DNA of 55,592 nt, counting the filler, from Jimgerdemannia flammicorona (taxonomy: Eukaryota), in assembly GCA_003990765.1 (NCBI GenBank). It is 3 parts of 3 records of this genome, joined end to end, with 100 filler letters (N's around TTAATTAATTAA, not from the genome) between each part and the next. Parts side by side here need not be neighbours in the genome. Positions count along the whole stretch, not along the records: positions 18,571 to 37,038 come from RBNJ01002207.1; 2 more parts are not named here. One strand, 5' to 3'. Positions 4,840 through 43,654 of the stretch are shown here, one piece after another. Made by a program: the position numbers and the translations under genes. A model generated the notes under the pieces. That model was not told the DNA's origin and ran no database searches. It worked only from the letters and a program-made list of their open reading frames with translations. Position 1 is the first letter of the stretch; each line of letters begins with the position of its first letter.

Positions 4840-4852
4840 GTATAAATACCCC
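4840..4852 (+). promoter_or_regulatory. LTR TATA box GTATAAATACCCC
   Basis: Exact motif. It recurs in the other A/B LTRs (13426, 21082-21094, 29428-29440) and in families D and E. Confidence 0.7.
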
Positions 4853-18570: not shown

Positions 18571-18749
18571 AAGGTGTATCTCTTAGACTAACTCAAGTTT
18601 GTTATAAGTAAGTTCTTATTGGAGTACCTTCCCAAGGTCTTATAGTCCTCAAACTTCTTATCTTTAACTGTCTTGTTATCTCTTAGATTGCTTGCAAGGA
18701 AGTGTATAAGTGAAACCAGAACTGACTTTATTTCAGAGGAAATAAGAGG

Positions 18750-19153
18750 TGTAATGGTTCTAGTTTCTAAATAAGGAAGCGACTAGTTCTGGTGGTCCTA
18801 AGTAGCTCGAAGAGATACTAAGGATTCAAGTATTCTTGAAGGATTTCTGAAAGAAAATATTCTGAGACTTTATTCATGAAAACAAAGGGGATATTTATAC
18901 AAGATCTGAAAGAAGGATCCAGAAGGATCTGAGAAATCAAAGGAAAATGCCAAGAGGAAAGTTCTCAGCAAAGATGACAAATGATGACAAATAAAGTTCT
19001 ACAAGTTTCCAGGACATTCAGTGACTAACTAAATAAGTACTAGTTAATGCTTGGTGCCAAGAAGGGGATTTCTAAGTGTGCAGAAAGTGCTGGAAGGTTA
19101 TAGAATATTCAAGAAAGACAGAGAAAAGAAATAAACTATGCAAAAATGTTACA
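18750..19153 (-). repeat. 3' LTR of C
   Basis: TGTAA...TTACA termini; direct repeat of 34796-35199. Confidence 0.95.
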
Positions 19154-19466
19154 TCTCCCCCTCCTTAAGAATCAACATCCTTATTGAATTCTCAAAGTTA
19201 CACATGATAAACAATAAGACTAAAAGAAACTTCAAATTAAATATATCGACTCATTGGCAAGGATTGGCCATCCTTGTATAAGGTGAGGGCCAAAGTATCA
19301 TCTTGATCAGATGAGAACTGGTTTGAACCTCATTGGTTACAGGATTTATAGGGTTCTCCTGTATCTCTTATTTCTGATACTGTATCCCTTAGAGAGCCCT
19401 GATGCGTAATGTGCCTGATCAGCACAGTAGGTCATCTACTATCTAAGGGGAGAACCTCATGGGCAG

Positions 19467-20606
19467 TCAATGAGTTCCTTTTTGCTCAAACTCTTGGATG
19501 AGGTCTTGAGAGTTCTTGAGATTGGCGGCAGGTTCCCAGGTAGTGTCATATTCAGGGTAATCCATCCACTTGACTAGGTATTCTGTGCGACAGTATCAGA
19601 CTTGCTTGTCTAAGATTTTCTTGACTTCATACTCAATGTGGTCTTCAACTATGACTAGTGCTGATGGTATTGGAATTTGGCCAGGGTATGGGGGTGACTG
19701 GTTCTAGGCCTTGAGTTGTGACATATGGAATACTGGGTGTATATGCATGGTTGTTGGCAAGTTGAGGCAATAAGACCAGATAGAGACTTGCTCGGTGATT
19801 TTGAAGGGTCTAAGGTACTTGGGCTGGAATTTGGCTGACTGGCGGTTGACTTGAGATTGAGCCTTGATGTTGTCAGCTTTGAGTAGAACCATATCACCAA
19901 TGTTGTATATAATATCTCGCCGCTTCTTATCTGCATACTTAGCTTGATATTGCTGAGCCTTTTGCAGGTTTGTAGTGGTGATCTTGAGAAGGGAATCCAT
20001 TTTGTCGATAAGGTTCTGGGCTGTGGGGACTTGTGTGTGACTGGATTGCTGGAATTGGACTAGACTCGCAGGGGTCTTGGGGTTTTGACTGTGAAGTAGC
20101 TAAAATGGGGAAAGACCAGTTGATGATTGGTTGGCATTGTTGTAGGCAAACTCAGCATAGGTCAGATAGTGGTCCCAATCATCTTGCTCATAAGACACAT
20201 AGTTTCTGAGCATTTGTTCAAGTGTTCTGTTCATTCGCTCGGTCTGTCCATCAGTTTGAGGATAGAAGGCAGTGGACATAGCAATTTGGGTTCCAAGGGT
20301 CTTGAAGAGTGCTTGCCAGAAGTGACTTGTGAACTTGGGGTCGCGGTTGCTGATAATTACTCAGGGAAGTCCATAATGATGGAAGACAGTCTTGAAGAAG
20401 ATTCTTGCAATTTCTGGGATAGTGGCATTGGTTGTGGTTGGCTCAGTGATTGTAATCTTGGTGAGACAGTCCACAAACACAACAATAGCATCATAGCCTG
20501 TTTTGGTTCGTGGGAGTTGTACAATGAAGTCCATTGTAACTTATTCGAACTTCTTGGTTGGAATTGGCAGAGGTTGCAGAAGACCGGCAGGTGCTTGGTT
20601 GCTTGA
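19467..20606 (-). pseudogene. pol: C integrase core, GPF/Y motif and chromodomain (3' part of pol)
   Basis: PAGLLQPLPIP, ORF 19704..20000 (KFQPKYLRPF..HPVFHMSQLK) and YLVKWMDYPEYDTTWEP. Confidence 0.92.
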
Positions 20607-22659
20607 TATAAGAGGGTTGCTTTTTAGAGTAACTGTTACATAGTTCTGAAAGGGTTTTCTAGAAGTTCTGGATTTTCTGGAAGACCATTTTCTTATGGTC
20701 AAGATCAATTTCATATGGAGTACGTCCTCTATGCTTATTGATTTCAAGATCGAGTTGATGTCTCAACCAAAGTCCTTTCTCAGACTAGTTCTGGATGTTC
20801 AGAATTTTCTGTATTTCAGGAAGTTCAAGAAACTAAGACCAGCTTAGTTGAATTGGCATATCACTGCAGACAATACCCAATTAGAAAATTTCATGATGGG
20901 GTTAGGAGTGGGACCTAACAGGGAGCGGATTTACTTAAGAGTGGTTTGTGGGTTATTAAATAAGTTTATTCACTATTCATGATATTGCTATACTAGGAGT
21001 AGTTGTGTAAAGGAATATTGTGGGGAAGTATTCAGGAATGTTCTTATGTATTCGAGTCTAAAATTCTGAGGTCTGGGGGAGGGGGTATTTATACTAGTGA
21101 GGGGCTATCTGGACTATGCTAGATATGGATGTAGCACTAAGTGCCTTTCTGAGTCATAATGCAGTCATGTAGTACAAGTGTGATCTGACATGTCAAGAGA
21201 TCGCTGAGTCAGTTCACAGTCATGTCATACAATGCTAATCTAACTATACTATGACTGCTAGGCTATTTATAGGTTTAGGTACTGTCTGAGTAGTCTTCAA
21301 TGACATCACCATCAATTGCATCATCTCTAATGAAGTAGTCATCTAGGAAAAGTGGTTTGCAGATTACTTCTCCTTGTTTGCTGAGGTAGTAATATATTGG
21401 AACTTCATCTTCATCCCACAGGATAGCATCGTCTGTCTCGTATGCTGGATAAGGTGTTGGTGGGCGAAGAATGGGTGTATTGTCTTCACTTTCATCAGAT
21501 TCGCTGTCTGCATACCTTCTATAGGTTACAGCACTATGAGTCGCGGGGTTGTAGTAAGCTGGTGGCTGTAGTTCATGTCGCTCATACTCAGGTGGCGGAG
21601 TTGTTGGTTCAATTTCGAGAGTTGTCTGAAGGTATAGGTTGTGTTCTCTGGTCTCTTTATTGTAGTTGAAATAATCAGGAGTAAATGTGGGTTGGTATTC
21701 ATATCAGTGGTTGTTGTCTCAATAAGTCTCGTATGTAGTTATGAACTATTATAAGTTTATCGGTAAGATTGGCAGAGTAATCAGAGTTGGCAGAGATCCT
21801 TGGCTAGAGGTCATATCGGCATCGGAGGGGTCATTGTCTTCTGCTTCGTCTTCATCAAAGTGGATTATATCATAGATGTCTTTCATGGCATATCCAACTT
21901 GGGGCATTTGCAGGATGTGATCATTGGGGTGTGGAAAGGTTCTGTCTGTGGTTTCGATGTACTTGAGGTACTTCTGGTTGAGTTCTTGTATCATGTCATC
22001 AATTTGACCATAGGATAAGGTAGCAACCATTTTACTGGTAGTAACTCGGAGGCAGGGAATAATGGTACTGTACTCATAGAAGAGTTCTCGATATTTGCGG
22101 GTGATGAGCTTCTGGTGTTGAGACATCTGGATAATGTCTGTATCATGGTGGTGTTCGACCATGTCTTCCAGGAGGCGGCCGATCTGGTAGTAGCTTGAGA
22201 TTTGTCTGATTCGGTGGGCCTCACTAAGCATGTTCAGAGCATTCCATTGGGCTTCCACGAAGTAGAGGGGTGCTAGGCTATGGATATTCATGAGGGGCAG
22301 AGGGGGTGTAGCTCAGTTGACAATGGCATTCCAAATGTCAGCACAGATACAGTTGTAGATCTCAGTGGTCATATTTGTGTGTTTGGAAGTTGTGGTTGTT
22401 GTTTGTTTTGGTTCTCTTGATTCGATGCATCTTGGTGCTTGGTATATATACATTTAGTCCTGATTGGTAAGATTCTGTTTATGTAAATCTTATGTTCTGT
22501 GACTTCATATTGACTTAGCTTTGTGTGCTGTGACTTCGGTTTGACTTAGCTTCATGATCAAGCAGGTGATTTCCAGATTTGTTCAGGGTTGTGTGTGATT
22601 TCAGTGGCTTGTTCAGAGGGTGACGTATAATTTCAGTGGTTTGGGGTTGTGCGCTTACA
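20607..22659 (-). repeat. 3' LTR of B (2053 bp)
   Basis: TGTAAGCGC start at 22659, preceded by PPT 22660-22673. Confidence 0.95.
21275..22372 (-). pseudogene. LTR-embedded accessory ORF, copy B3'
   Basis: 1098 bp; contains the 180-aa track ORF 21749..22291 in frame. Confidence 0.82.
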
Positions 22660-22864
22660 ACTCTCCCCTTCTTAGCTTTCGACATCCTTGTCAGGGCCTT
22701 CTAATTTAGTTCAGTAGTACTGGGAGAATAGGCTTGCTTTCAGTTTTGCCATTTCTCTAGAGAGTCAGTATTCTTGTCTTGTTTTGCTGAGTTCTTGGTC
22801 TGGTTTGCGATAATTATAATGTTCAGGAGGATAGTGTGTACTGATAGGTGCAGAGTATTTGGTT

Positions 22865-25800
22865 CTAGTTGTTCAAGGAATCATATTCCTGAACTAGATC
22901 GGTAGCATTCTGGAGATTGGTCTTGGGTTCCCAGGTTGCATCATAGATCAGGTAATCTTTCCATTTGACAAGGTACTCAGGATGGTTCTTGTTGCCACAT
23001 TTGTTGAGGATTTGTTCAACTTCATACTCTTCTTGGTCATTAATAATGACAGGTGCAGGTGGTTTGGTGGTCTGGTTTGGAAATAGCTTGTCATCATTCT
23101 CATTGTATTGCTTGAGATGTTGAACATTAAAGACTGGGTAAATCTTAATAGTGTCCAGTAGTGCCAGTTTGTAGGAGGTTGGAGAGACTTGTGCAATGAC
23201 TTCAAATGGTCCAATGAACTTGCTGTTCAGCTTTGTAGATGGTCTGTGCTTGAGGTTATCAACTCGGTATCCTCTGATGTCCAGTAGGACTTTTTCTCCA
23301 ATATCAAAGATTTCTTCTTGGCAGTGTTGATTAACATACTGTGATTGTTGTTCTTGAGCTCGTGATAAATTCTCGATTGCAATCTGGCTCAGATTGCCCA
23401 TTTGGAGTAGGAATTCTTCAACAGCTTCAACTGTGGAGGGTTCTTCAGTGGTCCGGATAAGTGTCAAAGGGATGTTTGGGTTTTGTTCAGTATTGGCGAA
23501 GAATGGGGTCATTCCGAGAGAGGCTTGCTTACTATTGTTGTAGGCAAACTCGACTGCGGTGAGGTGTTCATGCCAGTCATCTTGTCTGTAGAAAACATAG
23601 TTCCTTAGCATTTGTTCCAGAGTTCAGTTCATTCTTTTAGTTTGGCCATCAGTTTCTGGGTGAAAGGCTGTGGATAGTGCAAGTTTTGTTCCAAGGTGTG
23701 CATGGAGGGCTTTCCAAAAATGGCTGGTGAATTTCGGATCTCAGTCACTAATAATGGTCTTAGGAAGACCGTGATAGCAGAAGATCTTGTCAAACAAGAG
23801 TGTGGCTATGTCTGGTGCTGTTGCGGTGGTGGTAGTTGGTACAAAGTGGGCTTGTTTACTGAGATAGTCTACAAAGACAACAATTGCATCTTTCCCATTC
23901 TTGGTTCGGGGTAGTTGTATAATGAAGTCCATAGAGATTTGTTTTCAATTTGTGGATGGTACTGGGATAGGGTGGAGTAAGCCGGGTTTTGCTAGTGTTG
24001 AAGACTTGTTTCGTTGGCAGACATCACAGGAAGTGATGTAGGTCTTGAGTTGATCTGCCATACAGGGCCAATAGAAGTTTCGAGAGATAACTTCATAGCA
24101 TTTGTCAAATTCTAAATGTCCAGCTATAGGTGCATCATGAGATTCGAATAGGATAGTCCTTTAGAGGTCTCGGTTGTTTGGAACATACAGTCTGTCCTTG
24201 TAGTAGATAGCATTGTCCTTGAGTTGGTATTGGTTGTACCGGGTATGCTTGTCAGCATCGTCACTGTTCAGGATTTCTCGGAGTGCCTGAGCTTCCTTAT
24301 CATTAGCACATGCTGTGATAATTTGTTCCATGATGGAGTTTGTAACCAAGGTGAGAGTTTGGATAATCTCTTCAATTGGTGGTCTGGAGATTGCATCGGC
24401 AACAATATTTTCCTTGCCAGGGTGGTACTGAATTTCATAGTCAAAGTTGGTGAGGACTTTCATCCATCTGGCTTGTTTTCGAGAAAGGGTAGCCTGTGTC
24501 TTGATGTTGACTAATGACTTGTGGTCAGTCAATACAGTGAAGTGTGCTCCTTCTAGGTATGGTCGTCATTTGATCAGAGTGTCTACGATAGCTAACATTT
24601 CCTTCTCGTGGGTTGCGTAGTTAATTTCGGCATCATTGAACTTGCAGGAGTGATAGGCCACAGGGTGTCCTTCTTGCATGAGCACTGCTCCAAGGGCTAG
24701 GTCAGAGGCATCAGTAGTGACTTCATATGGTAGGACAGGATTTACTGCTTAAAGTACTGGAGTGGTTATCAGGGCATCTTTCAGTACTTGAAAGGTGGTA
24801 TCTTGTTCGGGTCCCCAATTTACAAGATTGTTGAAGTCTTTCTCTTGTTTCATGGTCCAGAGTTATTCTTGTTTCTTGCTGTGCTTGGTCATTTGGGTGA
24901 GGGCAGTAGCGATTTTAGCAAAGTTGGCAACAAATTACCTGTAATAGTTTGCTAATCCCAGAAATGACTGGAGGTCTTTCAGCTTCTTAGGTCTGGGCCA
25001 ATCCTTGATTGCAGAGATTTTGCTGGGGTCCACTTTGATTTCATTTGGAGTGACAATGTGTCTAAGGAATTGAATTTCTTTCAGAAGAAATTCACACTTG
25101 CTGAGTTTTGCAAAGAGTCAGTTTTCTCGGAGTTTCAGTAGTACTAGTTCAAGGTGTTCAAGATATTCCTCCAGGGTTTTGCTGAAGACTAGGATGTCGT
25201 CAATGTAGACAACAACGAATTTGTCCAAGTATGGATGCAGAATAGTATTCATCAGTGTCTGGAAGGTTGCTGGAGCATTAGTTAAGCCAAAGGGCATAAC
25301 CAGGAACTCGAAGTGTCTATAGCAAGTTTGGAAAGCTGTCTTGTAGATGTCTTCTTCTTTCATGGCAATTTGCCAGTAACCATTTCACAGGTCAAAAGAG
25401 CTCATGAATTGTGGGTTGGTGAGCCTATCGAATATTTCATCAATTCTTGGTAGTGGGCAACAGTTCTTGATGGTCTGTTCATTGAGATCACGGTAGTCAA
25501 TGCACATTCGTAGGTCTCCTCCTTTCTTGACAACAAAGAGAACTGGTGCACCATAGGGTGATACACTGGGTCTGATGAATTCTTGTTCTAGGAGTTCATC
25601 AATTTCTTTCTTGAGTGCATCAATTTCTCTTGGAGACATGTGGTAGATTGATTTGAAGGTGGCATCTGGGATAGTCTTGATGGCATGGTCTACTGCTCAT
25701 TTGGGAGGTAGGCCTTTTGGGAGCTTCTTCGGAAATATGTCTCAGAATTTTTGGAGTAGTGGTCTGACATGGCTGTCAACTTTGGAAAAATCTTCTTCAG

Positions 25801-28800
25801 AGTTCTTGGGTTCTCCTTTGGATGGTCGGATGGAGATGGCGAAGAGAGGGCATTTCTTGGCCAATTTCTTGAGTTGTAGCTTGTTGATGTAGGTGATCTT
25901 TGGTCTAGGGTCACTAGAGTTGAGTGAGTCCTTTTCGCCTTGTAGTTTGAAGTTGTGGCATCCTTTCTTGATGATCAGAGAATAGTTTACCCAATCAATC
26001 AAGGGGTTCTCTTGTTTTAACCATAGAGTCCCAAGGATGATTTCATTGTCAGGAAGTGGTATGATTTGGAGGGTAACATGTACTCGGTAGTCGCCAATTC
26101 GGAAGGGTAGATTGCGGACTTCTTTGCTGATGACATGTGAGGTTCCATCAGCTGTGGCAACTGCCTGGGTTTGTTGTACTAGAGAGGTGAAAACCTTGAG
26201 TCTGTTGGCTGTTTCCTCATTGATGAAGTTGCCTGAGGCACTACTGTTTATCATAATCTTGACAGGTGCTCCATTGACAAAAGCCTTAAGGGTGAGCAGT
26301 TTGTCTGATCCAATGGTGGTGATTTCAGTTGTAGGAGCCTTTCTTCTATTGGTTCTTCTTTGAGCCAGTTCGTTGACACAAGAGAAGCAATTATCAATCA
26401 TTTGAGAAGAGTACATTCCAATACCATGAGAGCATCGGCCACTTGATACATATCCATCTTTGATCTTCTTGTAGAATTGTTCTTCTTTGCTCATGGTAGG
26501 TTGGGCTGGAGCTTTGTTTGATGAGCCAAATCCTTTGGATCCTCGGATGGTGGGCAGTAGTTCGGGGACTTCCTTGACTGTCAGGGTTGACTCAATTTTT
26601 TCGAATAGGATCTGGGCAATACAGAAACCGATAGGGATCTTGAAGGGTATCCAACTGTGGTTTCGGATGAGGACAATAATTTCGCCTGTGTAATCCTTGT
26701 CAATGACTCCTCCTTCTACTGAGAGTCCTTTCAACACTAGGCTGCTGCAACAGCATATTCTTCCAACATATCCTTCAGGAATTTGGATACTGATTCCTGT
26801 ATAGACTTGCTTGACTTCTCGGTTTGAAACTGTAGCTTCTTTGGCTGCATATAGGTCATATCCAGCTGCTTTTTGACTTCCTTTGGTTGGAGCCTTGGCA
26901 GTTTGCCTTAACTTGACAAAGTCTAGTGTTCTGGTGGTCAGGTTGTTGAGGTGGTGCAGAGTGGTGACAGTTGCTCATGTTGCTGTTTGGGGTTTTTGGT
27001 TAGGGCAGGCACTGGCCATATATCCTGTCTTTCGGCAATAGAAGCATGCTTCACTTCTTCGAAGTTCATTTCTTTCGCCTTCAGTAAGTTTCTTGAAGGT
27101 ACTTGGCTGGGTAGGTTCATGATTTCTGAGTGTCCAAGAGGTGGATGTGGAGGGAGCTCGAGATGTTTCATGCTTGGGTTCTTCTTTCTTGGTTCAAGTT
27201 TTTTCCTTGTTGTTAAATTACCTTTGGGGCAGAATTGGTCCGGCTGTTAGGATTCGCTTGACCATGGTCTTGATTCTTGCCAGGTACCATTGTTGGTAAT
27301 CACAACCAACTGGGTGGCCTTGTTCTCGGATTTTTCTAGTAAGCCATTCAGGCAGGGCATCAAATAAATGGTCTGCTCTTGTACCATTTCATGCTTCATC
27401 ATTGGCAATGTATCCTAAGCCAACAGTGTTCAGGAGTGACTCGAGTTTTATATAGAAGGTTTCAAATTCTTCTTTGCCATGTATATCAAATTTGAGGTTA
27501 TGGAGTTTTACTCGAGATTCAGCGATCATGGTTTCACTGTGGTATTGAGCAATCATGAGTTGTTTGAGTCCAGGGGCTGCAGGATGGGCTCTATATTCTA
27601 GGGCATTATTTGCTGCATTCTGAGCAACTACTGCAGGTCAGGTGTCCCATGTGAGGGGTTTTTCAGGAAGGGTTTACCACCATTCTTCGGCAGGTCCTTG
27701 GAAGAATGTAACAACTCAGTGGATATAGGCTGTAGTGATAGCAAAGAGTTGTTCTAGAGTGTGGTCTTGATTGTTTGTCAGAACGTGGTCAGCAACTCAC
27801 TCATTGGTCCATTGATTGGCTTCGAAGTTGGTGTCAACTATACTAATAAAGCTTTGGACCTCTTATGCAGTACCATTGAAGGTAGATAGGCTCAGATTTT
27901 TGGTAGGTCAGGTCTGTTCGGCTAAGGCAGTAATGGTTGCTGCCATTATAGCTACCTGGGCTGTGAGGTCTAGAATCTGTTGGTTTGCCATATTGTTTAC
28001 TGGAGGTAGTTGGACTACTGGTAGTAGTATTACTGGTACTACTTGAGATACTGGTGCAGAGTGTGAGGGTGTTCTTTGGGTCTGTGTAAGTTGCTGGAGT
28101 AGTATTTGTGGGTCTGGAGTAAGGGCTTGATAGATAACTGTTTGTTGTTGTGTAGGTGTGTTCTGGCCTGATGGAGGTGCATCTTCTTCGGTGGTGTATC
28201 TAGGATCGAATTCAGTGAGATACTCCTCCTCCTCTTCAGTTTGGTCCCCATGTAATTGGGTTTGCTCAGCGTCAAAGTAGATGGAATCAGTTGTATATCT
28301 GATTTCAGATGGACTTAATTCAAAGTCAAGTTCTGGTTCAGTATTGGTTTCAGATTCAGGTAGGGCCATAGCAGGGCCAGCTTCAGGTTCGGGGTCAGGT
28401 AGTTGATGAAGGGTTTCTCTTGCTTCTTCCTTAAGAATATGGCGTGCCTTACTGTTCTGGAATCGGTAGTATAAGGCAGTCTTGGTCCTGGTGTGGTGAA
28501 AGTCGGTAGAGTTGAGCCACTTGGCTACAGAGACTTGGGCTTCATGAGGAACTAAGGCTAGAAAGACTGCTGCTAGTTGTCCTAGGTCGCTCGGATTTGT
28601 GGAGCTGACAAAACTCTTGTTGAGAAGAGTAAAGACGGCTTCTATAAGACCTTCTTCATCTTGACTTGCTGGGTGTAGTGCAAGGAGTTCGGTGAATAGG
28701 GTTTCGCCTATTTGCTCGTTTAATCGGAGTACTTCTTTCTTTGAATGAAGTTTGTCCCACTTATTGCAGGTGTGGAGATCAAATTGTCCTTGTACGTTAG

Positions 28801-28846
28801 GTTCAATTCTCTCCAGATTGTCAGATGGTTCAGGATAAATTCCAGT
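22865..28846 (-). pseudogene. gag-pol: Gag-dUTPase-PR-RT-RNaseH-IN-chromodomain polyprotein of B (in-frame stops)
   Basis: Track ORFs 27908..28369, 25742..26737 (dUTPase + PR), 25385..25639 and 25118..25363 (RT, YIDD), 24161..24532, 23741..23932, and 22865..23611 (IN + chromodomain EYEVEQIL..YLVKWK..TWEP). Zinc knuckle CFYCRKTGYMASAC at ~27005-27050. Confidence 0.94.
26519..26926 (-). CDS. dut: dUTPase domain within the B polyprotein
   Basis: Trimeric dUTPase motifs AAGYDL, TGI, (R)SSL, GGVIDKDYTGEI, IAQI and RGSKGFGSS. Confidence 0.92.
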
Positions 28847-28937
28847 TCAGAGGTTGGGCTTTATACCAACTTGTAGGAATTCTCAGAAGGGTTTGTAGTA
28901 GGTGAGAAAGTGTCTTGAAGCAGAATTGGATTATAAA

Positions 28938-28949
28938 CCACTGCTACCA
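28938..28949 (-). promoter_or_regulatory. PBS TGGTAGCAGTGG of B
   Basis: Lies 3 nt from the 5' LTR end. Confidence 0.88.
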
Positions 28950-28952
28950 AGT

Positions 28953-31014
28953 TGTAAGAGGGTTGCTTTTTAGAGTAACCATTATGTAGTTCTGAAAGGG
29001 TTTTCTGGAAGTTCTGGATTTTCTGGAAGACCGTTTTCTTATGGTCAAGATCAATTTCATATGGAGTACGTCCTCTATGCTTATTAATTTCAAGATCAGG
29101 TTGATGTCTCAACCAAAGTCCTTTCTCGGACTAGTTCTGGATGTTTAGGATTTTCCATATTTCAGGAAGTTCAAGAAACTAAGGCCAGCTTAGTTGAATT
29201 GGTGTATCGCTGCAGACAATACCCAATTAGGAAATTTCGTAACAGGGTTAGGAGTGGGACCTAACAGGGAGCAGATTTACTTAAGAGTGGTTTGTAGATT
29301 ATTAAATAGGTTTATTCGCTATTCATGATATTGCTATACTAGGAGTAGTTGTGTGAAGGGATATTGTGGGGAAGTATTCAGGAATGTTCTTTTGTGTTCG
29401 AGTCTGAAATTCTGAGGTCTGGGGGAGGGGGTATTTATACTAGTGAGGGGCTATCTGGACTATACTAGATATGGATGTAGCACTAAGTGCCTTGCTAAGT
29501 TGGAATACAGTCATATAGTACAAGTGTGATCTGACATATCAAGAGATTGTCTGACTGCTGAGTCAGTTCACAGTCATGTCATACAATGCTAATCTAACTA
29601 TACTATGACTGCTAGGCTATTTATAGGTTTAGGTGCTGTCTGGGTAGTCTTCGATGACATTACTATCAATTGCATCATCTCTAATGAAGTAGTCATCTAG
29701 GAAAAGTGGTTCACAGATTACTTCTCCTTGTTCGCTGAGGTAGTAATACATTGGAACTTCATCTCCATCCCACAGGATAGCATCGTCTGTCTCGTATGCT
29801 GGATAAGGTGTTGGTGGACGAAGGATGGGTGTATTGTCTTCGCTTTCATCAGATTCACTGTCTGCGTACCTTCTATAGGTTACAGCACTATGAGTCACGG
29901 GGTTGTAGTAAGCTGGCGGCTGTGATTCATGTCACTCATACTCAGGTGGCGGAGTTGTTGGTTTGATTTTGAGAGTTATCTGAAGGTACAGGTTGTGTTC
30001 TCTGGTCTCTTCATTGTAGTTGAAATAATCAGGGGTGAACGCAGGTTGGTATTCATGCCAGTGGTCATTGTCCCAATAAGTCTCGTATGTAGTTATGAAC
30101 TGTTATAAGTTCATTGGTAAGGTTGGCGGAGTAATCAGGGTTGGCAGAGATCCTTGGCTAGAGGTCATGTCAGCATCGGAGGGGTCATTGTCTTCTGCTT
30201 CATCTTCATCGAAGTGGATTATATTGTAGATGTCTTTCATAGCATATCCAACTTGGGGCATTTGCAGGATGTGATCATTGGGGTATGGGAAGGTTCTGTC
30301 TGTGGTTTTGACGTACTCGAGGTACTTCTGGTTGAGTTCTTGTATCATGTCATCAATTTGACCGTAGGACAAGGTAGCAACCATTTCACTGATAGTAACT
30401 TGGAGGCGGGGAATAATGGTACTATACTCGTAGAAGAGTTCTTGATGTTTGCGGGCGATGAGCTTCTGGTGTTAAGACATCTGGGTAATATCTGTATCAT
30501 GGTGGTGTTTGACCATGTCTTCCAGGAGGTGGCTGATCTGGTAGTAGCTTGAGATTTGTCTGATTCAGTGGGCCTCACTAAGCATGTTCAGAGCATTTCA
30601 TCAGGCTTCCATGAAGTAGAGGGGTGCTAGGCTATGGATATTCATGAGGGGCAGAGGGGGTGTAGCTCGGTTGACAATAGCATTCCAAATGTCAGCACGG
30701 ATATAGTTGTAGATCTCAGTGGTCATGTTTGTGTGTTTGGAAGTTATGGTTGTTGTTTGTTTTGGTTCTCTTGATTCGATGCATCTCGGTGCTCAGTATA
30801 TATGCATTTAGTCCTGATTGGTAAGATTCCGTTTGTGTAAATCTTGTATTCTGTGACTTCATATTGACTCAGCTTTGTGTGCTGTGACTTTGGTTTGACT
30901 CAGCTTTGTGATCAAGTAGGTGATTTCCAGATTTGTTCAGGGTCACATGTGATTTCAGTGACTTATTCAGAGGGTGACGTATAATTTCGGTAGCTTGGGG
31001 GTTGTGCGCTTACA
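28953..31014 (-). repeat. 5' LTR of B (2062 bp)
   Basis: Intact TGTAAG...CTTACA inverted termini. Confidence 0.95.
29629..30726 (-). pseudogene. LTR-embedded accessory ORF, copy B5'
   Basis: 1098 bp; track ORFs 30103..30384 and 29629..29898 are in frame with the ATG at 30726. Confidence 0.82.
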
Positions 31015-34000
31015 CTTGACTTGTTTCTTTGGCAAAGATCATAGCTTTGGACATACTCCTTGATTTCCTTGAGCATGTTTGGCCAGTAGTAGTCTCATTG
31101 GATATTCTTGATGGTCTTCTCAGTTCCAAGATGGCCAGCTAGTGGGGAGTCATGATGTTCATGAAGAATCTTGTACCATAGTTCAGGGTTGGCAGGAATA
31201 TATACTTTGTCTTGATAGTACATGAGGTTGTCCTTGATGGTGTACTTTTCCTTGAATTCCTTGGTATTCCTTTATAGAACCAGAGGGTCTTGTTCATATG
31301 CCTTCTTGATCTGGTTGAGGAATTCAGGTGCCATGGTGACTTGTAAAATCACAGCAAGGTCAGGTCTTCTTGACAGTGCATCTGGTACAACTAGAGTTTT
31401 GCCAGGCTTGTAGATGATGTTTGGGGTAAAGGTCTGAAGTAATTGGCTCCACTTGGCTTGTTGGTGAGAAAGGGTTGGTTGAGTGCTGATGTACTGAAGG
31501 GACCTGTGATCAGTGATCACATCGAACTCAACTCCTTCTAGATAGTGTTGCCAGGTCTTGAGGGTATGCATAATTGCCAGGAGTTCCTTTTCATGAGTAG
31601 CCAGCTTTTGTTCTGCTGGGGACAGTTTTCTTGACTCAAAGGCAATAGGTCGGTGTCCTTGACCATCATCTTGAGAAATAACTGCACCAATGGCAAAGTT
31701 AGATGCATCTGTAGTGACCATGAACTTCAAGTTTGGGTCCATGTTTCTAAGGACAGGTGCATGGGTCAGGTGGTTCTTGAGTTCTTGAAAGGCTTGTTGA
31801 CAGAAAGCATCCCAGATATAGGGGACATAGAGGTCAGAGTTGGGTTCCTTTTGCAGGAGGTTTATCAAAGATTCTGTGATGCCAGAGAAGTTCTTAATAA
31901 ATCGACAGTAGTATCCAGCCAGACCAAGGAAGGATCTGAGTTCAGTGAGGTTTGCTGGTATAGGCCACTGTTCAATGGCTTGTATTTTCCTTGGGTCTAC
32001 TTGAATTCCTTTGGCTGATACAATGTGTCCAAGGTATTCAACTTGATCCTTGAAAAATTTACATTTCTTGAGCTTTGCATAGAGCTTGTTCTTGCAGAGG
32101 ATCTTGAGGACTTGTTCAATATGCTTGAGGTATTCTTCTTCAGTACTACTGAAGATAAGGATATCATCAATATATACCAGTATGAAGATATACAGCTGAT
32201 CCTTGAAGACAGTTTGCATGAGGTCTTGAAAGGTTGCTGGCACATTGATGAGACCAAAGGCCATGACTAGGAATTCATAGAGTCTAAAGGGTGTCATGAA
32301 GGCAGTCTTGGGTATGTCTTCTGGCTTGATTCGAATTTGGTGATACCCAGAGGTGAGATCAATCTTGGTGAAGTACTTTGCATTCTTGAGGGCATCAAAG
32401 ATTTGGTCTATGAGTGGTAGCAGATAATGGTTTTTGACTGTGATCTTGTTGAGTGCTCGGTAGTCTATACACATTCACAGAGTATCATCTTTTTTCTTGA
32501 CAAATAGGACTGGGGAGCCAAAGGGTGACTTGCTTGGCTGAATGGCTCCTCGCTCAATAAGTTCATTGAGTTCCTTCTTGACTGCTTCAATTTCGAGTGG
32601 AGATATGCAGTATATTTTCTTCTTAGGTATAGCTGTATCAGGTACCAACTTGATTTTGTGGTCATGGTCTCTTGAAGGTGGTAGACCAGGTAGTTTGTCT
32701 GGGAAGACATCCTTGTACTTGTTCAGCAGTAACTTGATGCTTTCACTAATTGATAGCTTCTTGTCTTCTTTCTTGGGTCAGATCAGTACTACAAAGGCAC
32801 AGGTAGCTTTCTTGAGGGCCTTCTTGAACTGAATTGCCAAAATAGTAGCAATTGGAGTTCTCGTCTGAGTCTTGTCTGGCTTGATGGTAATATTGGCTCC
32901 ATCCTGGATCAAGGTGACTTCATTCTTGATCCAATCTATCTGAGGGTTGTGCCATGTAAGCCAGGGTTTGCCTAGGATCAGGTCATGGTCTCCTAGAGGT
33001 GCTACCTCAAAATCTAAATGTTCCCAGTACTTCTGGATCTTGAGGGGAAGTTTAGTGGCAATTGAGTCAATTGGTAAGGTGGTGCCATCTGTGGTGACAA
33101 CTCCACCATTCTTGCCAGCTGGTTTGGTGAGAATCTTGAGCTTGTCGATGAGGTTCTTGTTGATGAAGTTCCCAACAGCTCCACTGTCTATGAGAACATC
33201 TAGTTCTTGTCCCTTGACTAGACCTTTGAAAATGAGTATTGAGTTGGCTCAGTTCTCGGCTATGCTTGCAACTTTGTCAGTGCTGCCAAAGCCTTTCTGA
33301 TCTTGTTTGGTTGAGAGCAGCTTGGTGACTTCTTTGATGACTGGTAGGGTGGCTCACTCCAGAATGAGCTGTGCAATTCTGTCTCCTTCATTGATGGTAT
33401 ATGGTTGGTTCTTGTAGTTGACTAGCAGGACTTGCATTTCGCCTCAGAAGTCAGGGTCAATGACTCCAGCACCAACATCCAATGAGTGCTTGAAACTGAG
33501 GCCAGATCTTGGTGCAATTCTTGCATAATGTTCCTTGGGAATTTCGACTGAAAGGCCAGTTGGAATGAACCTTCTCTCATATGCCAGAATAGTGACTTGC
33601 TGTACTGCTTGAAGGTCCAAACCAATGGCTCCTTCTGACTGTGCTTGAGGGATCTGGGCCTTGGAGTTGACTTGCATGAAATTGAGTACAACTTCTTGTT
33701 CAACTGGTTGACCTTGGGTGTCTTTGGACAGGACCAGAATCCTCTTTGGTTCAGCAGTTTTCTTGGGACATTTAGTTGCAATGTGGCCAGGCTGATGGCA
33801 AAAGAAGCAGGCTCCAGCCTTCTTGAGATGCTCCTTTTCCTCAGGTGTAAGCTTGCCTTTCTTGTTCTTGTCAATGGTGTCTAGGTCCATGGGGGCAGGT
33901 CCAACAGTTCTGACTTTGGGTTCCTCCCTTCTGTGGTGGTTGTTGTTGAAAGGTGGTCTCTTTTGTTCAAAGCAGTGACCATAGGTGATGACATCAAATC

Positions 34001-34727
34001 TATCAGCAATTTTCATTGCTGTATCTAGGTCCTTGGGTTCTTCTAGTTTGACACAAACTCGGGTTTGACCTTTCAGGCCTCAGATGTACTTGTCGACCTT
34101 CTCGTCTTCAGTGACATATGGTAATTCTAGTAGGATTGACAGGAATTGTGCATTGTATGCTTGCACAGACTTGAGTTGTTTGACGTTTGCCAGATGGTCT
34201 CGTGTGGCCTTGGTGCTGTTGACTGGTTTGAATTGGCCTTGAATAGCATCAGAGAATTCACCCCAGGTCTTGATTCGGCCAGAGAATCTGGTGTTCTGGA
34301 CATGATTTTGCCACCAGATTGTAGTATTCCCTTGAAGGAGTGTGGTAGCAAATTGGACTAGTGTTGCTTTTTCCAAATTGGTCAGTTCTCCATATTGCTC
34401 CAATTGGAAAAGCCAGGTGTCAGTAGACAGTCCTCCTCTTTGACGATCAAAGGTGTTGGGCTTCTGAGGCTTGATAGTGACTGCTGTCAGATGTATTGAT
34501 GTCAGTAGAGGTGCGGAGGTATGAGCAGGGGCCTTGCTTTCCTTTCTTTCTATGCATTCTTGAAGTTGAGCAATCTGAGCTAGTGCATTCTGCAAAAGAC
34601 TCTCGATGGCCCTGTTTGACTGAGTAGGGTTTTGCTATTCCTCTTCTTCTTGCTAATTGTACTGATTGTATGAGGTATTGCCTGGACCATAGGTACTATA
34701 TGAAGGATTCCACCCATTGTCCTCCAT
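31015..34727 (-). pseudogene. gag-pol: C gag-dUTPase-PR-RT-RNaseH and N-terminal integrase
   Basis: ORF 34080..34595 (retrotransposon Gag), ORF 33444..34016 (PMDLD, CFFCHQPGHIATKC, dUTPase), protease LIDSGA (~33190), and ORF 31272..32474 (RT YIDD, RNase H TDAS). Confidence 0.94.
33275..33690 (-). CDS. dut: dUTPase domain within the C polyprotein
   Basis: GAIGLDL, PTGL, IAPRSGL, GAGVIDPDF*GE, GDRIAQL and KGFGSTD. Confidence 0.92.
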
Positions 34728-34781
34728 AGTGTTGTAACTAATATCTTGAAAGGTGTCTTGATAAGGCTAGGTGTAACTTCA

Positions 34782-34793
34782 CCACTGCTACCA
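34782..34793 (-). promoter_or_regulatory. PBS TGGTAGCAGTGG of C
   Basis: Same 12-mer as B's PBS, 2 nt from the LTR. Confidence 0.88.
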
Positions 34794-34795
34794 AG

Positions 34796-35199
34796 TATAA
34801 TGGTTCTAGTTTCTAAATGAGGAAGCGACTAGTTCTGGTGGTCCTAAGTAGCTCAAAGAGATACTAAGGATTCAAGTGTTCTCGAAGGATTTCTGAGAGA
34901 AAATATTCTGAGACTTTATTCATAAGAACAAAGAGGATATTTATACAAGATCTGAAAGAAGGATCCGGAAGGATCTGAGAAATCAAAGGAAAATGCCAAG
35001 AGGAAAGTTCTTGGCAAAGATGACAAATGATGACAAATAAAGTTCTACAAGTTTCCAGGACATTCAGTGACTAACTAAATAAGTACTAGTTAATGCTCGG
35101 CACCAAGAAGGGGATTTCTAAGTGTGCGGAAAGTGCCGGAAGGTTATAGAATATTCAAAAAAGACAGAGAAAAGAAATAAACTATGCTAAAATGTTACA
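34796..35199 (-). repeat. 5' LTR of C
   Basis: Direct repeat of 18750-19153. Confidence 0.95.
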
Positions 35200-37375: not shown

Positions 37376-37377
37376 GT

Positions 37378-40263
37378 TTCTAAATCATGGTTAATACTCT
37401 AGAACCCTGAGCACTACTGTAAAACCAGTAGTCTCAGTAGTCCAAGATTTGGCTGAGACTATTTCTGATCATATCCAAATGACAAGGAATGCTCTCATAG
37501 AAGTACAAGACTACCAGACTAAGTATGCCAACTTGAAGTAAAGAGAAGCCTCCTATAATATTGGTGATATGGTCATACTCAGAATAGACTATCTTCACTC
37601 TAATACTCTAGCCCAGCAACCATCTAAGAAGCTTCATGCCAGAAGGATTGGACCATATAAGATTGTGAAAAAAGTCAGTAAAATCAACTATAAGCTGTAA
37701 CTCCCTACTAATATCTAAGTTCACCTAGTATTCCATATCAGTCAACTGGTAGACTACCATGTGAATCTATTTCCTGAGCATATAGTTTCATCACTACTCC
37801 TAATTAGGATCAATGATCACAAGGAATTTGAAATTGAGAAAATACTTGACCACAAGATCTGCAAATATACTAGAATAGCTAAGTAGTATTATCTTATCAA
37901 GTAGAAGGATTACTCTACTCATGATGCCACCTGGGAAAAAGAAGAAGTACTGGAGAATATATATGAAGCTCTTCAGAACTATATGGAAACACTCACTCCT
38001 CAGTAAAGAAGGGAACTACAGCTCTAAAAATAGTGAGTATATAGCAAATATAGTGATAATACATATTTATCTAGGATATATAATATCAAATATTATGAAG
38101 AAAAAGAATACTATAATTAGCCAATAAGACAAAAGAATGTTCAGATGAAGAACTCTCCTGAACTAACCCAGCAGAGTTTAGCAAAATATATTTGAACAAC
38201 TCTATTTATGCCATCTGTATCATCTTTATTGAAGAATGATAGATGTTTTATATGGAACTCAAGAAAGCCAACAATCTTAGAACCAGACTCAAGTTCATCT
38301 ACATAATAGATATTATTACTAGAAATTGCCTCAGATTACAAGAAAGTCTATTTTCAAGAGGTTCAAACCCCCAGCTATAATATTGAGAGCCCTTGCCCTA
38401 GATAAGAATAGCCAGTCCTTGGAATATACATCAATGAAACAAAAAAAAAAAAAAACTAAGACCTGTTAACTCTGTGTAACCATAACTGCAAAGTGATAAT
38501 ATCTGTAAAATCAGTAATCTTCATATGACTAGCACATGCTCTGCTTATAGTAACAGATCATATATACCCCTAGGAATGTGATCAAAATGAAGTTATACCA
38601 GACAGGTGAATAAGCATATATATCCAGAGAAGAAACACCTTGTAACCCTCTTCCTCCTTTCCTCTACACAAAGAAAAAATAATATAAAAATACCTATCAT
38701 CTGCCACCAATCTACCCACTACAGCCAGCTCCTGTGAAGCCAAGTGGACAGCCTTTTTGGACATATCCAAATCACTATCTAGAGAAGGAACTGCTGCTCT
38801 AAGGCCCTTAATCTCACCAGCTAGGACCTAGGACACTATGTTCTCAACTGCCACAAAATTATAGAAAGGTCCTACCTTGCTACTAGCTGTCTAGATATCT
38901 GGTATGAATATGAAATTGGACACCAACTCTGCCAGCAGACATAAGACCAAACTGCTGAACAGATCATAGACTGAGTCCACTAAGACAGATATAAGCAAAG
39001 ACTAGTCAAGAAGGTCTACCAAATCATGAAGTATGCACCCTTTGCAATCTCTAACCTTATCTATGTATAACTGAAGGATTTTTAGAACCTCTCCTACTCT
39101 GAGATTAATGCTTTGGAAATTAAGATCATACAAGAAGTTCACTCTTGAATCTCTCTCCTAAATAACAACTCAGACCAATAAATCTAAGGTCTCTCTGACC
39201 TCTTTAAAGGACTGTCCATCTGAATAGATATCCCCTGTATAATGAGCAAGTACCCTATATAGATGGCCTCAACCACATTAGATAGAGAACTCCTACCCTA
39301 CTATCTGCCTCAGCTCAAGAATCATTTGGAGACCTAATTGACTTCTCCTCTCTTAACATCAAGCCATCATCAATTATCCCTCCTATTCTTGGTATAAAAG
39401 ACTATAATAAGAGAGATAAAGTGGAGAATTTCCCAATTTCTCCCTTAGTTCTTAATTTCCAGATCAATAAGAATAGTGATCTCTTTTAAGGGTAGAAGAA
39501 TATAATAAAGTGAATAGATGAGATGTGACAATGAATAAAGATACAATGAGTGATCATATGACTCTATAATAATAATATTACAATCAAGCAATATATAACA
39601 AATAACATATAAATATAACAAATAAGTAGGATGTGAATGATGCAAATAATGTAAATGATGAGATAAATAATATCTAGCTTATCCCCAGCAATCAGTCTGT
39701 AGTAAATTACTGTAGTAACTAATTATTACATAATAAAGATCTTGATCACAAAGGTCATGATCACAAACTCACCATAGTCACCCAAATTAGTCATTTATAC
39801 TTAGTCGGAAATCATGAACCAATCTGTATAAATACCCCCCATATTTTTATCTAAAATAAAGATAGTTTTAGTTTAGTCCTTAATATAAGAATGAAGTCCT
39901 CTTTTCATATATACATTCTCCTGAGTCTTAGTAATGACATCTAAGTGACTCTAGTATTTCTGACTAAACTCTAGAAGTCTAGCTAACTTCTGCCAGAACT
40001 AAGACTGGTATATAATTACAAAGACTTAAGGAAAACTCCTTATTGAATCTGAATTCCAAGGCAAATTCAGTCTATATATAGCAAAGAACAAGTCTCTTAC
40101 AACTATGATTGATAAGAAGAGTACTACCACTATAACTATTTTCAAGCAAGCACTTCCTCAAACTGAAGACTTCTTGGTATACTTATGTACTAAGTCCCTA
40201 AGTAATATCTTATTTTTCTAATTATTTAAGGATAAGAGAGGGGTAGAAATAACAATTATTATA
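37378..40263 (+). mobile_element. Chromovirus family E copy E1: integrase C-terminus and chromodomain, plus ~2.2-kb 3' LTR (38040-40263)
   Basis: GPY motif and chromodomain (EFEIEKILDHK..HDATWEK). Duplicate of 41770-44390. LTR bounded by TATAGC and ATTATA (decayed TGTAGC/GCTACA); TATA at 39826-39838. Confidence 0.8.
38140..39489 (+). pseudogene. Family E LTR-embedded accessory ORF, copy E1 (5' limit approximate)
   Basis: Hand translation: ..IWYEYEIGHQL..KQRLVKKVYQIMKYAPFAISNL..NLSYSEINAL..FGDLIDFS..PLVLNFQ..DLF*. Confidence 0.7.
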
Positions 40264-40505
40264 CTGACCCTACTAGGCTATTTACTTTGACCACAGATAC
40301 CTCTGATATTACTATTGGGGCAGTTCCTAGCTAAGAAGATTGCCCAGTAGCCTACCTGTCCCAAAAGCTCAAGCTAGCTGAGATCTGATATACTATCCAT
40401 ATGAAGAAACTTCTGGTCATTATCATTGCACTTTAGGAATAGTGTTATTTCCTCTTAAGATAATTATTCATGGCCTACACTGATCATCATACTCTATAGT
40501 ATATC

Positions 40506-40748
40506 AAAAAGCAAAAACTTTTTAGATGAGTCCTACATATATTACAATATGGGTCCTCAATTTATTTTCTTCCAAGTGTGTCAGTACTGTTTCACAGACC
40601 ATCTCACCCATGGAGCCCACCTCACACATACCACCTCACCAAGCTCATCTGAGCCTTTTTTCAGTCATACTATTGGTTGATCTTGTAATCCAGCTATCAC
40701 ACCTCAGTCAGCAGCACCTGATGGGTTTCATCCTCTGAGTTATGGTCC
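40506..40748 (-). mobile_element. 243-bp insertion with a 16-bp TSD (TPRT-type retroposon fragment)
   Basis: TACTCTATAGTATATC occurs at 40490-40505 and 40749-40764. Removing the insert restores the RNase H TDH..LxYI..Q.M. segment. AATAAA on minus near its 3' end. Confidence 0.75.
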
Positions 40749-42559
40749 TACTCTATAGTATATCTATACTCAGCCCATGCTGATCTATAAACAAGCCCAT
40801 TGGATGGAAATCATTACTAACTTCAATATGGAAATTAAGTATATCTCAGGCAAAACCAACCATATAGCTGATGGTTTCTCCAGATATATAGAAGATAAAC
40901 TTACCATTATGGTCAAGATTATTGGAGACCTCACTCAGATAATCAAAGATAGCTACCAAAAGGACAGTCCTCTGATAAAATTCCTTCAATTCTGCTAAGA
41001 CCCAGAGGCTGAGGTCCCAGAAGCTATAAAAAGAATATCTAAGAGATTTACATACTATGATGAACTCATCTATATGGACTATGATAGAGTGGTAGTATCT
41101 AATGATAATACTCTGTAGCTCAAGATCATGCAGAAACTTCATAATACTCCGATAGCAGGATACTTTGGTTTTGAAAAGACCTACAATCTCCTCTCAAGAG
41201 AGTTTTACTGACCAAAGATGATCAAGGATATCAAAGACTTTGTGGCCTCATGTGAAATATGTCAAAGATTCAGATAACAAACTACCTGCAGGACTTCTAC
41301 AATCTCTGTTCATTACTAGTCATAACTGGGATTAGATTGTAATGGACTTCATGTCCAGCTCTCCAAAACCAAGGCAGAATGGGATACCATTGTAGTATTT
41401 GTGGACTGCCTGAGTAAGTAAGCTCATTTTGCACCCACTAAGACCACTTTGACAGCCCCTGAGATTGTCGAGATCTTTCTTAACCAAGTATTCAGACTAT
41501 ATAGTATGTCTAGCACTATTATATCTGACTGAGATGCTAAGTTTACAAGCAACTTCTGGAAGATATTCTTTTCTCTCTATGATACCAAGTTGAAGTTCTC
41601 TATAGCCTACTATCTCCAGACTGACAGTCAGACTAAGTGAACTAATAGGACTCTCAAGCAGATACTTAGCATCTTTTGCTATTATAAGTAAAATGATTGG
41701 GACAAGTACCTAGCCTATACCAAGTTTGCCTATAATAATAGTCAGCAAATCTTTACAAAGAAGACTTCATTCTTCCTGAACCATAGATAACACCCAAGGA
41801 CCCCAAGTACTACTGTAAAATCAGCAGTCCCAGCAGCATAATATTTGGCTAAGACCATTTCTGATCTTATCCAAATGATAAGAGATACTCTCATAGAAGT
41901 ACAGGACTATCAGACCAAGTATACCAACTTGAAGTGAAGAGAAGCCTCCTATAATATCAGTGACATAGTCATACTCAGAACAGACTATCTTCACTCTAAT
42001 ATCCTGGCCCAGCAATTATCCAAAAAGCTTTATGCCAGAAGAATTGGATCATATAAGATTGTGGAAAAAGTCAGTAAAGTCAACTACAAGTTGCAACTCT
42101 CTGCCAATATCCAAGTTCACCCAGTATTCCATATTAGTCAACTGGTGGACTACTATGTGAATCTATTTTCTGAGCATATAGTTCCACCACTATACCTAAT
42201 TAGGATCAATGATTATGAGAAATTCAAAATTGAGAAAGTACTTAATCACAAGGTCTGCAAATATACTAGAATAGCTAAGTAGTTTTTTCTCATCAAGTGG
42301 AAGGGTTATCCCACCCATGATGCCATCTGGGAAAAGAAAGAAGTACTAGAGAATATATGTAAAGCTCTTCAGAACTATATGGAAACACTCACTTCTCAGT
42401 AAAGAAAGGAACTATAGCTCTAAAAAATGGTGAGCATATAGCAAATATAGTAATAATATATATCTATCTAAGATATATAATATCAAATATTATAAAGAAT
42501 AGAAATACTATAATTAACCAACAGAAGAACTCCTCTGAACTAACTTAGTAAGGTTTAGC

Positions 42560-43654
42560 AAAATACATTTGAACAACTCTATTTATACCATCTGTATCAT
42601 CTCTATTGGTGAATGATGGATACTTCATATAAAATTCAAGAAAGCCAACTATGTTAGCATATGCTCTGCTTACAGCAACAGATCATATGTGCCTCTAGGA
42701 ATGTGATTAAAATGAAGTTACACCAGATAGGTGAATAAGTATAAATACTCAGAGAAGAAATACTTTGTAACCCTCATCTCCTTTTCCTCTCTACAAAGAA
42801 AAAGCAATATAAGAATGCCTGCTACTTACTGCCAAACTGCCTGCCACAGCTAGCCCCTACTAAGACAAGTAAACTGCCTTTTTGAATATATTCAGATTAC
42901 TATTCAAGGAAGGAACTACTGCTCTGAGGCCCTTAATCTCACCAGTCAGAACCTAGGACACTATGTTCTCAATCACTATAAAGTCATTAAAAGGGCTTAC
43001 TGTACTACCAGCTACCTAGAAATCTAATATAAATATGAAATTAGATACTAACTCTACCAGTGAACATAAGACTAAACTGCCAAACAGATTATGGACTAGG
43101 CTTATTTAGATAGGCATAAGCAAAAACTAGCTAGGAAGTTTCACTAAATTATGAAGTATACACCCTTTAAAATTCCCAATCTTACTTATATATAACTAAA
43201 GAATTTCCAGAACCTCTCCTATTCTGAGATTGATGCATTGAAAATCAAGATCACACAAGAAGTCTACTCTTAGATTCCTCTCAAGTTTACTGACTGCAAA
43301 CTCTACTAGAGTCTCCTCCTGAATGATAACTCCGACCAACAGATCCAAGACCTCTCTGACCTCTTTGAAGGACTACCTATCTGAATGGATATCCTTCTGC
43401 ATAATGAACAAGAACTCTATATAGATAGCCCTAATTACATTAGATGGTGAACTCCTATCCTATAGTCTGCCCTAATTTAAGAATTATTTGAAGATCTCAT
43501 TGACTTCTCCACCCTTGATATTGAGCCATCAATAACTACCTCTCTCACTATTGACATGAAAGACTATAATGAAGTAGAGGATGAAGTAGAGAATTCTCCA
43601 ATCCCTCTCTTGGTTCTTAATTTTTAGATCAATAAGGATAGTGATCTCTTTTAA
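42560..43654 (+). pseudogene. Family E LTR-embedded accessory ORF, copy E2 (internal deletion relative to E1)
   Basis: ..LDRHKQKLARK..IPNL..NLSYSEIDAL..LLNDNSDQQIQDLSDLFEG..FEDLIDFS..PLLVLNF..DLF*. Confidence 0.7.

Follow-up and report, generated by a model that had tools for sequence, protein, structure and literature searches.

A reading frame inside a long terminal repeat

Is the open-looking reading frame that recurs inside the long terminal repeats (LTRs) of a Jimgerdemannia flammicorona retrotransposon a gene, and if so, how would a gene in such a position be expressed and what might it encode? The stretch of DNA analyzed here, 55,592 nucleotides from GenBank assembly GCA_003990765.1 and hereafter termed the window, harbors two inserted elements of the same LTR-retrotransposon family, element A on the plus strand and element B on the minus strand, and all four of their LTRs carry the frame. 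The carrier is a dUTPase-bearing chromovirus (Ty3/gypsy) family. We find it very probable that a real accessory gene of this chromovirus, situated wholly inside the LTR, has left the span as its decayed remnant.

From ATG to TAA the span measures 1098 bp in each of the four LTRs, corresponding to 365 codons plus the TAA (366 including the stop), and it runs in sense orientation at LTR positions 289-1386 in element B and 291-1388 in element A. The two copies of element B lie on the minus strand, one in the 5′ LTR at 29629-30726 with six internal stops (codons 42, 43, 54, 85, 208 and 265), and the other in the 3′ LTR at 21275-22372 with five (codons 20, 208, 209, 218 and 223). The latter is the least damaged copy and is open across codons 21-207. 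The copies of element A, on the plus strand at 3554-4651 (5′ LTR) and 12140-13237 (3′ LTR), have nine internal stops each. No further copy of the open reading frame (ORF) was found elsewhere in the window, the tblastn matches being the four LTR copies only. Translation at all four sets of coordinates bore out the preliminary description of this locus, which had reported one and the same span in LTRs of 2064, 2062 and 2053 bp; self-BLAST and an LTR alignment returned the same lengths, and the codons quoted there, 20 and 208, were read correctly. The four spans are all present, but since the two LTRs of one element are identical at the start, the "four copies" of that description amount to only two independent insertions.

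The distribution of the stops differs sharply between the frames. In the sense frame no stop is common to all four copies, whereas the remaining five frames have 5, 13, 18, 21 and 19 such stops. Some copy has a stop at 21 codon sites in total, and in each case a sense codon is retained in another copy, mostly CGA, CAA, CAG or TGG, each one transition away from the stop. For example, codon 20 reads CAA/TGA/CGA/TGA over the four copies, and codon 208 (30103-30105 and 21749-21751) is TAA in both LTRs of element B, CAA in element A and Gln in a related protein, P0005. In addition, the ORF columns are gap-free in all four copies, and the remainder of the LTR alignment contains nine indel events. 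Coding on the antisense strand was considered separately and rejected, as five antisense-frame stops recur in every copy.

All four LTR copies decayed after insertion via C-to-T and G-to-A transitions. Singleton changes number 279 across the four LTRs; 134 of them are C-to-T and 76 are G-to-A (210/279). The share of sites affected is 0.33-0.46 for CpA, 0.24-0.44 for CpC and 0.03-0.16 for CpT, with CpG almost gone, a context that departs both from a simple CpG pattern and from the CHG type seen in plants.

The frame was maintained by purifying selection

To separate the history of the gene from its later decay, we defined fixed differences as sites at which the two LTRs of each element agree but A and B differ; such differences predate insertion. 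The 99 fixed differences fall on codon positions 1, 2 and 3 in the proportion 23/10/66 (chi-square p = 5e-12), whereas the other 202 variable sites, mostly post-insertion decay, are distributed as 79/43/80 (contingency p = 5e-5). Likewise, the ratio of synonymous to non-synonymous changes is 42:20 among the fixed differences versus 81:121 within elements (Fisher p = 1.5e-4). The Nei-Gojobori ratio of non-synonymous to synonymous rates (omega) between A and B is 0.167 for the LTR gene, and the same comparison gives 0.169 for the dUTPase-protease, 0.192 for the integrase-chromodomain and 0.323 for the gag-side ORF of the same elements. Within-element LTR pairs yield a ratio of 0.29-0.37 for the LTR gene; these pairs are the proper baseline, because near-purely transitional decay puts the neutral Nei-Gojobori ratio below 1. 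On codons identical within each element, the A-B lineage omega drops to 0.087.

The preliminary description had proposed a selection test on transversions only, and its outcome points the same way. Eight of the nine fixed transversions are at third positions and five of the nine are synonymous, against 14% expected, giving a dN/dS of roughly 0.13, on small numbers. Altogether, the frame was kept open under purifying selection during the divergence of the A and B lineages, and the constraint was as strong as that on the pol domains. The earlier suggestion of a former sense-orientation protein-coding gene inside the LTR is thus upheld, with no fixed stops, no frameshifts and a constraint equal to that of pol. 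As for the rest of the LTR, A-B fixed sites make up 7.0% of the 288 bp that precede the gene and 3.9% of the part that follows it, compared to 18% at third codon positions (66/366). By these rates both non-coding parts of the LTR look constrained too, with the caveat that third positions are C-rich and more mutable.

Contigs of soil metagenomes, and those of one organism, contain the family in great abundance. A total of 5274 contig pieces from four runs were placed on positions 28700-31100 at a likeness of at least 80%. Among the small indels listed, 1 of 12 falls in the ORF, which makes up 46% of the stretch (binomial p = 0.007), and among the deletion joints listed none of five does; four further indels and most of the base differences are outside those listed.

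Over the same positions, the contig depth summed over the four runs is several-fold higher in the LTR than in the flank and the neighboring internal sequence, and the LTR portion that follows the gene is covered more deeply than the gene itself. Contig depth is not copy number; the pattern could reflect solo LTRs or a class of LTRs that lacks the gene.

Relatives and predicted properties of the protein

We built a profile from the four copies, replacing each stop by X, and a search of 1.84 billion representative proteins, without restriction on length, revealed two true relatives. P0006 is an open sequence of 128 residues with 88% identity, which has Arg at codons 20, 42 and 54, where window copies read TGA. 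P0005, also open, comprises 247 residues with 65% identity, shares the same C-terminus and differs by two in-frame gaps of two residues each. Two other candidates, P0007 and P0008, were judged spurious, being repeat proteins that match over short stretches only. P0005 and P0006 are known as proteins only, and no related DNA was confirmed in metagenome contigs or viral contigs. The LTR protein matches no described family: the PDB sequence search gave no match, and Pfam returned no family up to E = 10, save a chance-level match to Paf1 (E = 0.044, in one of six members). The ESM Atlas had no usable match for either P0005 or the gag-side ORF.

The LTR protein is acidic, with a net charge of about -40, and is rich in Tyr and Pro (8.5% Tyr). 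Residues 1-120 are near neutral, and residues 173-365 contain 43 Asp/Glu versus 9 Lys/Arg along with 19 Tyr, for a net charge of about -34. There is no hydrophobic segment, the maximum 19-residue hydropathy being 0.8-1.55. AlphaFold2 predicted long helices at residues 2-18, 34-74, 80-118 and 121-141 with low confidence, and otherwise coil or short strands. Five blocks of the tail are retained in P0005, namely FITTYETYW, DYFNYNE, AYYNPAT, PTPYPAY and YFIRDD, and by this conservation the tail is more than filler. The product is probably, as judged from its composition, a soluble and strongly acidic protein with a helical N-terminal part of ~140 residues followed by a disordered yet conserved tail.

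The acidic, Tyr-rich tail noted in the preliminary description is real as a matter of composition, and proves nothing on function. Our best guess from composition is a trans-acting regulator of the element. It might be an activator of LTR transcription, which we offer as a possibility that may well turn out wrong; a blocker of host silencing seems to us an unlikely role. The protein may instead act in other ways, such as in particle assembly or chromatin targeting.

Candidate signals for a transcription unit within the LTR

In the 5′ LTR of element B, all signals being on the minus strand, the ATG (30724-30726) is preceded by a promoter-like block. This block includes a 31-bp tandem repeat of 2.2 copies (30844-30910) with two TGAGTCA sites (30896-30902 and 30865-30871), which we take to be AP-1/Gcn4-type basic leucine zipper sites, a CCAAT (30817-30821) present in three of the four copies, and a TATA-like ATATATAC (30796-30803) found in every copy ~75 nt ahead of the ATG. 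TGAGTCA and CCAAT have been lost in some copies through G-to-A or C-to-T changes. On the other side of the frame, TATAAATA directly follows the stop (29618-29625), and a TGACTCA site lies at 29559-29565. A second TATAAATA (29432-29439), the candidate main promoter of the element, is found 190 bp past the stop (LTR positions 1386 and 1576), in accord with the approximate spacing between the stop and a TATA-type motif given in the preliminary description. With its C-rich flank, this second motif resembles the GTATAAATAyCC of the LTR of element C, a neighboring chromovirus in the window; GTATAAATACCCC matches the element C promoter motif over 18 nt at 83-89% (E = 0.044 to 1.9). A single AATAAA in this LTR (29311-29316) represents a candidate polyadenylation signal and the putative end of R, the terminal repeat of the genomic RNA.

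The gene was tentatively placed in U3, the LTR region upstream of the start of the genomic RNA, in view of the likeness between the downstream TATAAATA and the promoter motif of the element C LTR. With some reserve, we favor a model in which each LTR would be a self-contained transcription unit. The promoter-like block at the 5′ end of the LTR would drive an mRNA of ~1.45 kb, which would end at the single AATAAA of the LTR, and the genomic RNA of the element would begin at the TATAAATA 190 bp past the stop, leaving the gene in U3. The U3 placement of the preliminary description accordingly has the support of motifs, and of motifs only. The fuller proposal, that each LTR constitutes a complete gene, with promoter, ORF and polyadenylation signal, for an acidic, Tyr-rich activator or anti-silencing trans-factor, is put forward as a tentative and rather doubtful one.

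Alternative explanations

Could the frame look open merely by chance of composition, combined with a scarcity of indels, in an LTR that codes for nothing? The indels private to one LTR (n = 4) all lie outside the ORF, a pattern for which selection cannot account, so that the four copies by themselves make indel depletion a weak argument; the depletion stressed in the preliminary description gains weight only from the contigs, with 1 of 12 listed indels in the ORF. The exact antisense frame also has few stops, 6-11 per copy, though five of them are common to all four copies. Against a chance frame stand the excess of third-position differences at p = 5e-12, an omega equal to that of pol, the lack of shared stops, and two open relatives (65% and 88% identical) in which every gap preserves the frame, so we regard the absence of a gene as highly improbable. 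A captured host gene or fragment that is merely carried, under selection inherited from or unrelated to the life cycle of the element, would have a precedent in the extra ORFs captured by LTR retrotransposons, as reported for bdelloid rotifer elements (PMC5408684). However, no host-like relative outside the element family was found at any length among the 1.84 billion representatives, and the purifying selection acted during the divergence of two element lineages, while the ORF sat in the LTR. Moreover, the base make-up of the ORF (A.33, C.28, G.17, T.23) and its codon-position pattern equal those of gag-pol, which favors long residence in the element over recent capture. Mere carriage of a host sequence is thus a poor candidate. 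A real accessory gene is the reading we retain, with several observations weighing against it. All four window copies are dead, and the gene is known here from sequence alone. Within-element differences are themselves uneven over codon positions (79/43/80), so that mutation context adds to the codon periodicity. Only two relatives emerged from the 1.84 billion representative proteins, both partial, and P0005 begins at an internal Met and is known from there on only. The helical N-terminal part is a weak prediction, given a mean predicted local distance difference test score (pLDDT) of 32.9 for the full alignment and 41.5 for residues 1-172. The TAA at codon 208 implies either that the parent copy of B already had its gene cut short after 207 codons or that the same CpA change occurred twice; under the former alternative, B transposed with a truncated gene, and the LTR gene would therefore not be needed in cis.

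Two further alternatives accept the gene and differ in how it is expressed, a question that bears on the model since transcript starts, the U3/R border and the use of the promoter-like block are all read from motifs. In one, the gene follows the manner of sag in mouse mammary tumor virus or nef in HIV: it lies in U3, has no promoter of its own, and is translated from a spliced subgenomic RNA that starts at the promoter of the 5′ LTR and draws on the copy in the 3′ LTR. Retroviral U3 genes are known to be expressed by this route, and the U3 of the 3′ LTR is indeed carried on the genomic RNA; nevertheless, an intron of ~8 kb would be required, which is unusual if the host is a fungus, and every one of the four copies has, ~75 nt ahead of its ATG, a TATA-like box within a promoter-like block. 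We consider this route improbable. In the other, the genomic RNA would start from the upstream block, and the ORF would be the first cistron, an "ORF0", in a very long R. The best-formed activating architecture, that is, the tandem repeat with two TGAGTCA sites, CCAAT and the TATA-like box, does precede the ORF. On the other hand, an R plus U5 of ~1.8 kb would need a strong-stop DNA far beyond the usual, and the downstream GTATAAATACCCC resembles the promoter motif of element C, which has the same primer-binding site (PBS), although this is modest evidence. Extra ORFs before gag are known in plant elements, for instance ORF0 of Retrosat2, according to the accessible portion of PMC3485330. A location in R-U5 seems to us equally improbable.

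The carrier elements and their surroundings

The borders of the LTRs were obtained from a self-BLAST of the window and an alignment of the repeats. Element B is bounded by a 5′ LTR of 2062 bp with TG..CA ends (28953-31014, minus strand) and a 3′ LTR of 2053 bp (20607-22659, minus strand), and is flanked by a 5-bp target duplication, TCAAG, at 20602-20606 and 31015-31019. The 5′ LTR of element A measures 2064 bp (3264-5327, plus strand), and its 3′ LTR extends from 11850 to about 13806 on the plus strand with a truncated end; its likeness to the other LTRs stops ~110 bp short of the expected end, at 13806. By self-BLAST, the LTRs are 92.4% identical in the B pair, 88.1% in the A pair and 83-86% between A and B.

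The internal region of element B (22660-28952, minus strand) starts with a PBS-like TGGTAGCAGTGG at 28938-28949, 3 nt past the 5′ LTR, and ends with a polypurine tract, AAGAAGGGGAGAG, at 22661-22673, directly before the 3′ LTR. Between these signals, all on the minus strand, lie a gag-side ORF without a Pfam match (27908-28846), a dUTPase plus aspartic protease identified by Pfam (25742-26974), and an integrase SH3 domain followed by a chromodomain (22865-23623; SH3_Tf2-1 E = 7e-16, Chromo E = 1e-14). The reverse transcriptase (RT) stretch of element B is broken, and Pfam matches to RT and RNase H were obtained in the neighboring element C only (31272-32474). Element B thus displays the features of a chromovirus, with TG..CA LTRs, a target duplication, a PBS, a polypurine tract and an integrase followed by a chromodomain. 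It is the dUTPase, aspartic protease, integrase SH3 domain and chromodomain of B, together with the RT and RNase H of its relative C, that identify the carrier as a dUTPase-bearing chromovirus.

Element B is nested inside element C, a third, related dUTPase chromovirus on the minus strand (18749-35199). The LTRs of C are ordinary ones of 405 bp, at 18749-19153 and 34795-35199, with 95% identity, and its PBS is the same as that of A and B (the same TGGTAGCAGTGG follows the C LTR), making it a natural short-LTR comparison. As for a possible origin of the long LTR of A/B from a short one like that of C, the likeness between them is limited to the promoter motif and the PBS. On the minus strand, element C encodes gag (34083-34634), a zinc knuckle plus dUTPase (33447-34079) and an RT-RNase H (31275-32474). 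In both the A/B family and C, the dUTPase domain (Pfam E = 4e-32) is situated between gag and protease. This placement differs from all three positions quoted for the Postia elements in the available passages of PMC2864245, namely the Pol N-terminus, the Pol C-terminus, or between protease and RT.

The window as a whole is eukaryotic repeat DNA with a GC content of ~40% and a CpG observed/expected ratio of 0.25. Apart from the three chromoviruses, it contains a LINE-like non-LTR element on the plus strand (52157-54652), composed of an endonuclease/exonuclease/phosphatase fragment and then a 624-codon open frame with RVT_1; with 53.6% GC, this stretch is well over the window mean. Older repeats at 37377-44388 and 44391-47067, whose pairs are 75-88% identical, include an integrase SH3 fragment at 41938-42279, and a 418-codon open frame without a Pfam match lies on the minus strand at 45106-46359. 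The window has no solo LTRs; no RNA families were found in it, nor any genes other than those of transposable elements among its 38 further ORFs.

Comparison with known systems

By position, the closest analogues of the LTR gene would be sag of mouse mammary tumor virus (MMTV) and the 3′ genes of foamy viruses. MMTV sag is a sense ORF of some 300 codons in an unusually long U3, which is present in both LTRs and ends upstream of the promoter, and its product is a type II membrane glycoprotein of a vertebrate retrovirus. The LTR gene appears to share with sag the layout of a sense ORF inside a long LTR, duplicated and ending before a candidate LTR promoter. By contrast, the LTR protein has no hydrophobic segment, is strongly acidic and shows no sequence match to Sag, and its carrier is an env-less chromovirus. 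The foamy virus genes tas/bel1 and bet are 3′ accessory genes reaching into U3, with an internal promoter and an acidic C-terminal part. Here too, a promoter-like block before the ATG and an acidic C-terminal part would be points of likeness, in composition and motifs only; there is no sequence likeness, and in our case the whole gene is inside the LTR. The likeness to VANC proteins, the family-specific anti-silencing trans factors of VANDAL (Mutator-like) DNA transposons, is one of concept only, that of a factor encoded by a transposon and potentially able to oppose host silencing; VANDAL elements are transposons of a different class, and there is no sequence likeness.

By kind, the closest counterparts are the additional ORFs (aORFs) of plant LTR retrotransposons. 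As described in the available parts of two studies, these include ORF0 of Retrosat2, RIRE3 and RIRE8, ORF1 of Ogre and the 3′ ORFs of Retand and Athila; they are lineage-specific, occur in long-LTR elements, and evolve faster than pol yet under selection (PMC7264820, PMC3485330). Like them, the LTR gene is an extra ORF besides gag-pol, common to the copies of the family and under selection. However, the plant aORFs sit in the internal region, either upstream of gag or in the interval from pol to the 3′ LTR, as stated in the accessible passages of PMC7264820, a text in which the wording "in/within/inside the LTR" occurs zero times; the LTR gene occupies positions 289-1386 of 2062 in the LTR, and there is no sequence likeness. 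Judged by sequence, the LTR gene is a member of none of the sag, foamy virus or plant aORF groups.

Chromoviruses with a dUTPase have been described from fungi, including PosPlaTy3 of Postia placenta, elements of Phanerochaete chrysosporium and Tmt1 of Tuber, in the available passages of PMC2864245. The carrier resembles them in having gag, dUTPase, protease, integrase and chromodomain, with RT/RNase H scored in element C. In contrast, those passages mention no gene within the LTR, although a figure legend there names an "add. ORF", the position of which is not readable in the accessible version (PMC2864245). The fungal hosts of these elements, along with the abundance of the family in soil metagenomes, make a soil fungus the likely host of the carrier.

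Implications

In a literature search, no LTR retrotransposon was found described as carrying a gene within its LTR; as the coverage was partial and without supplements, an earlier description is possible. Accessory genes set "complex" retroviruses apart from simple retrotransposons, and, to our knowledge, the handful of cases in which an LTR contains a gene all come from vertebrate retroviruses. If a chromovirus has indeed acquired a selected gene of this kind, then an env-less retrotransposon is able to evolve such a layout too. Its product would represent a new orphan protein family, a candidate for the control of element transcription or of host silencing. Pipelines for LTR annotation presume that LTRs are non-coding, and such genes would be missed or masked by them. 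If the proposal is true, each insertion adds two copies of the gene and each solo LTR retains one, so that solo LTRs, usually seen as regulatory debris, could be protein-coding. The element would thereby seed a dispersed multigene family in the host genome, with a dosage that follows the copy number of the element.

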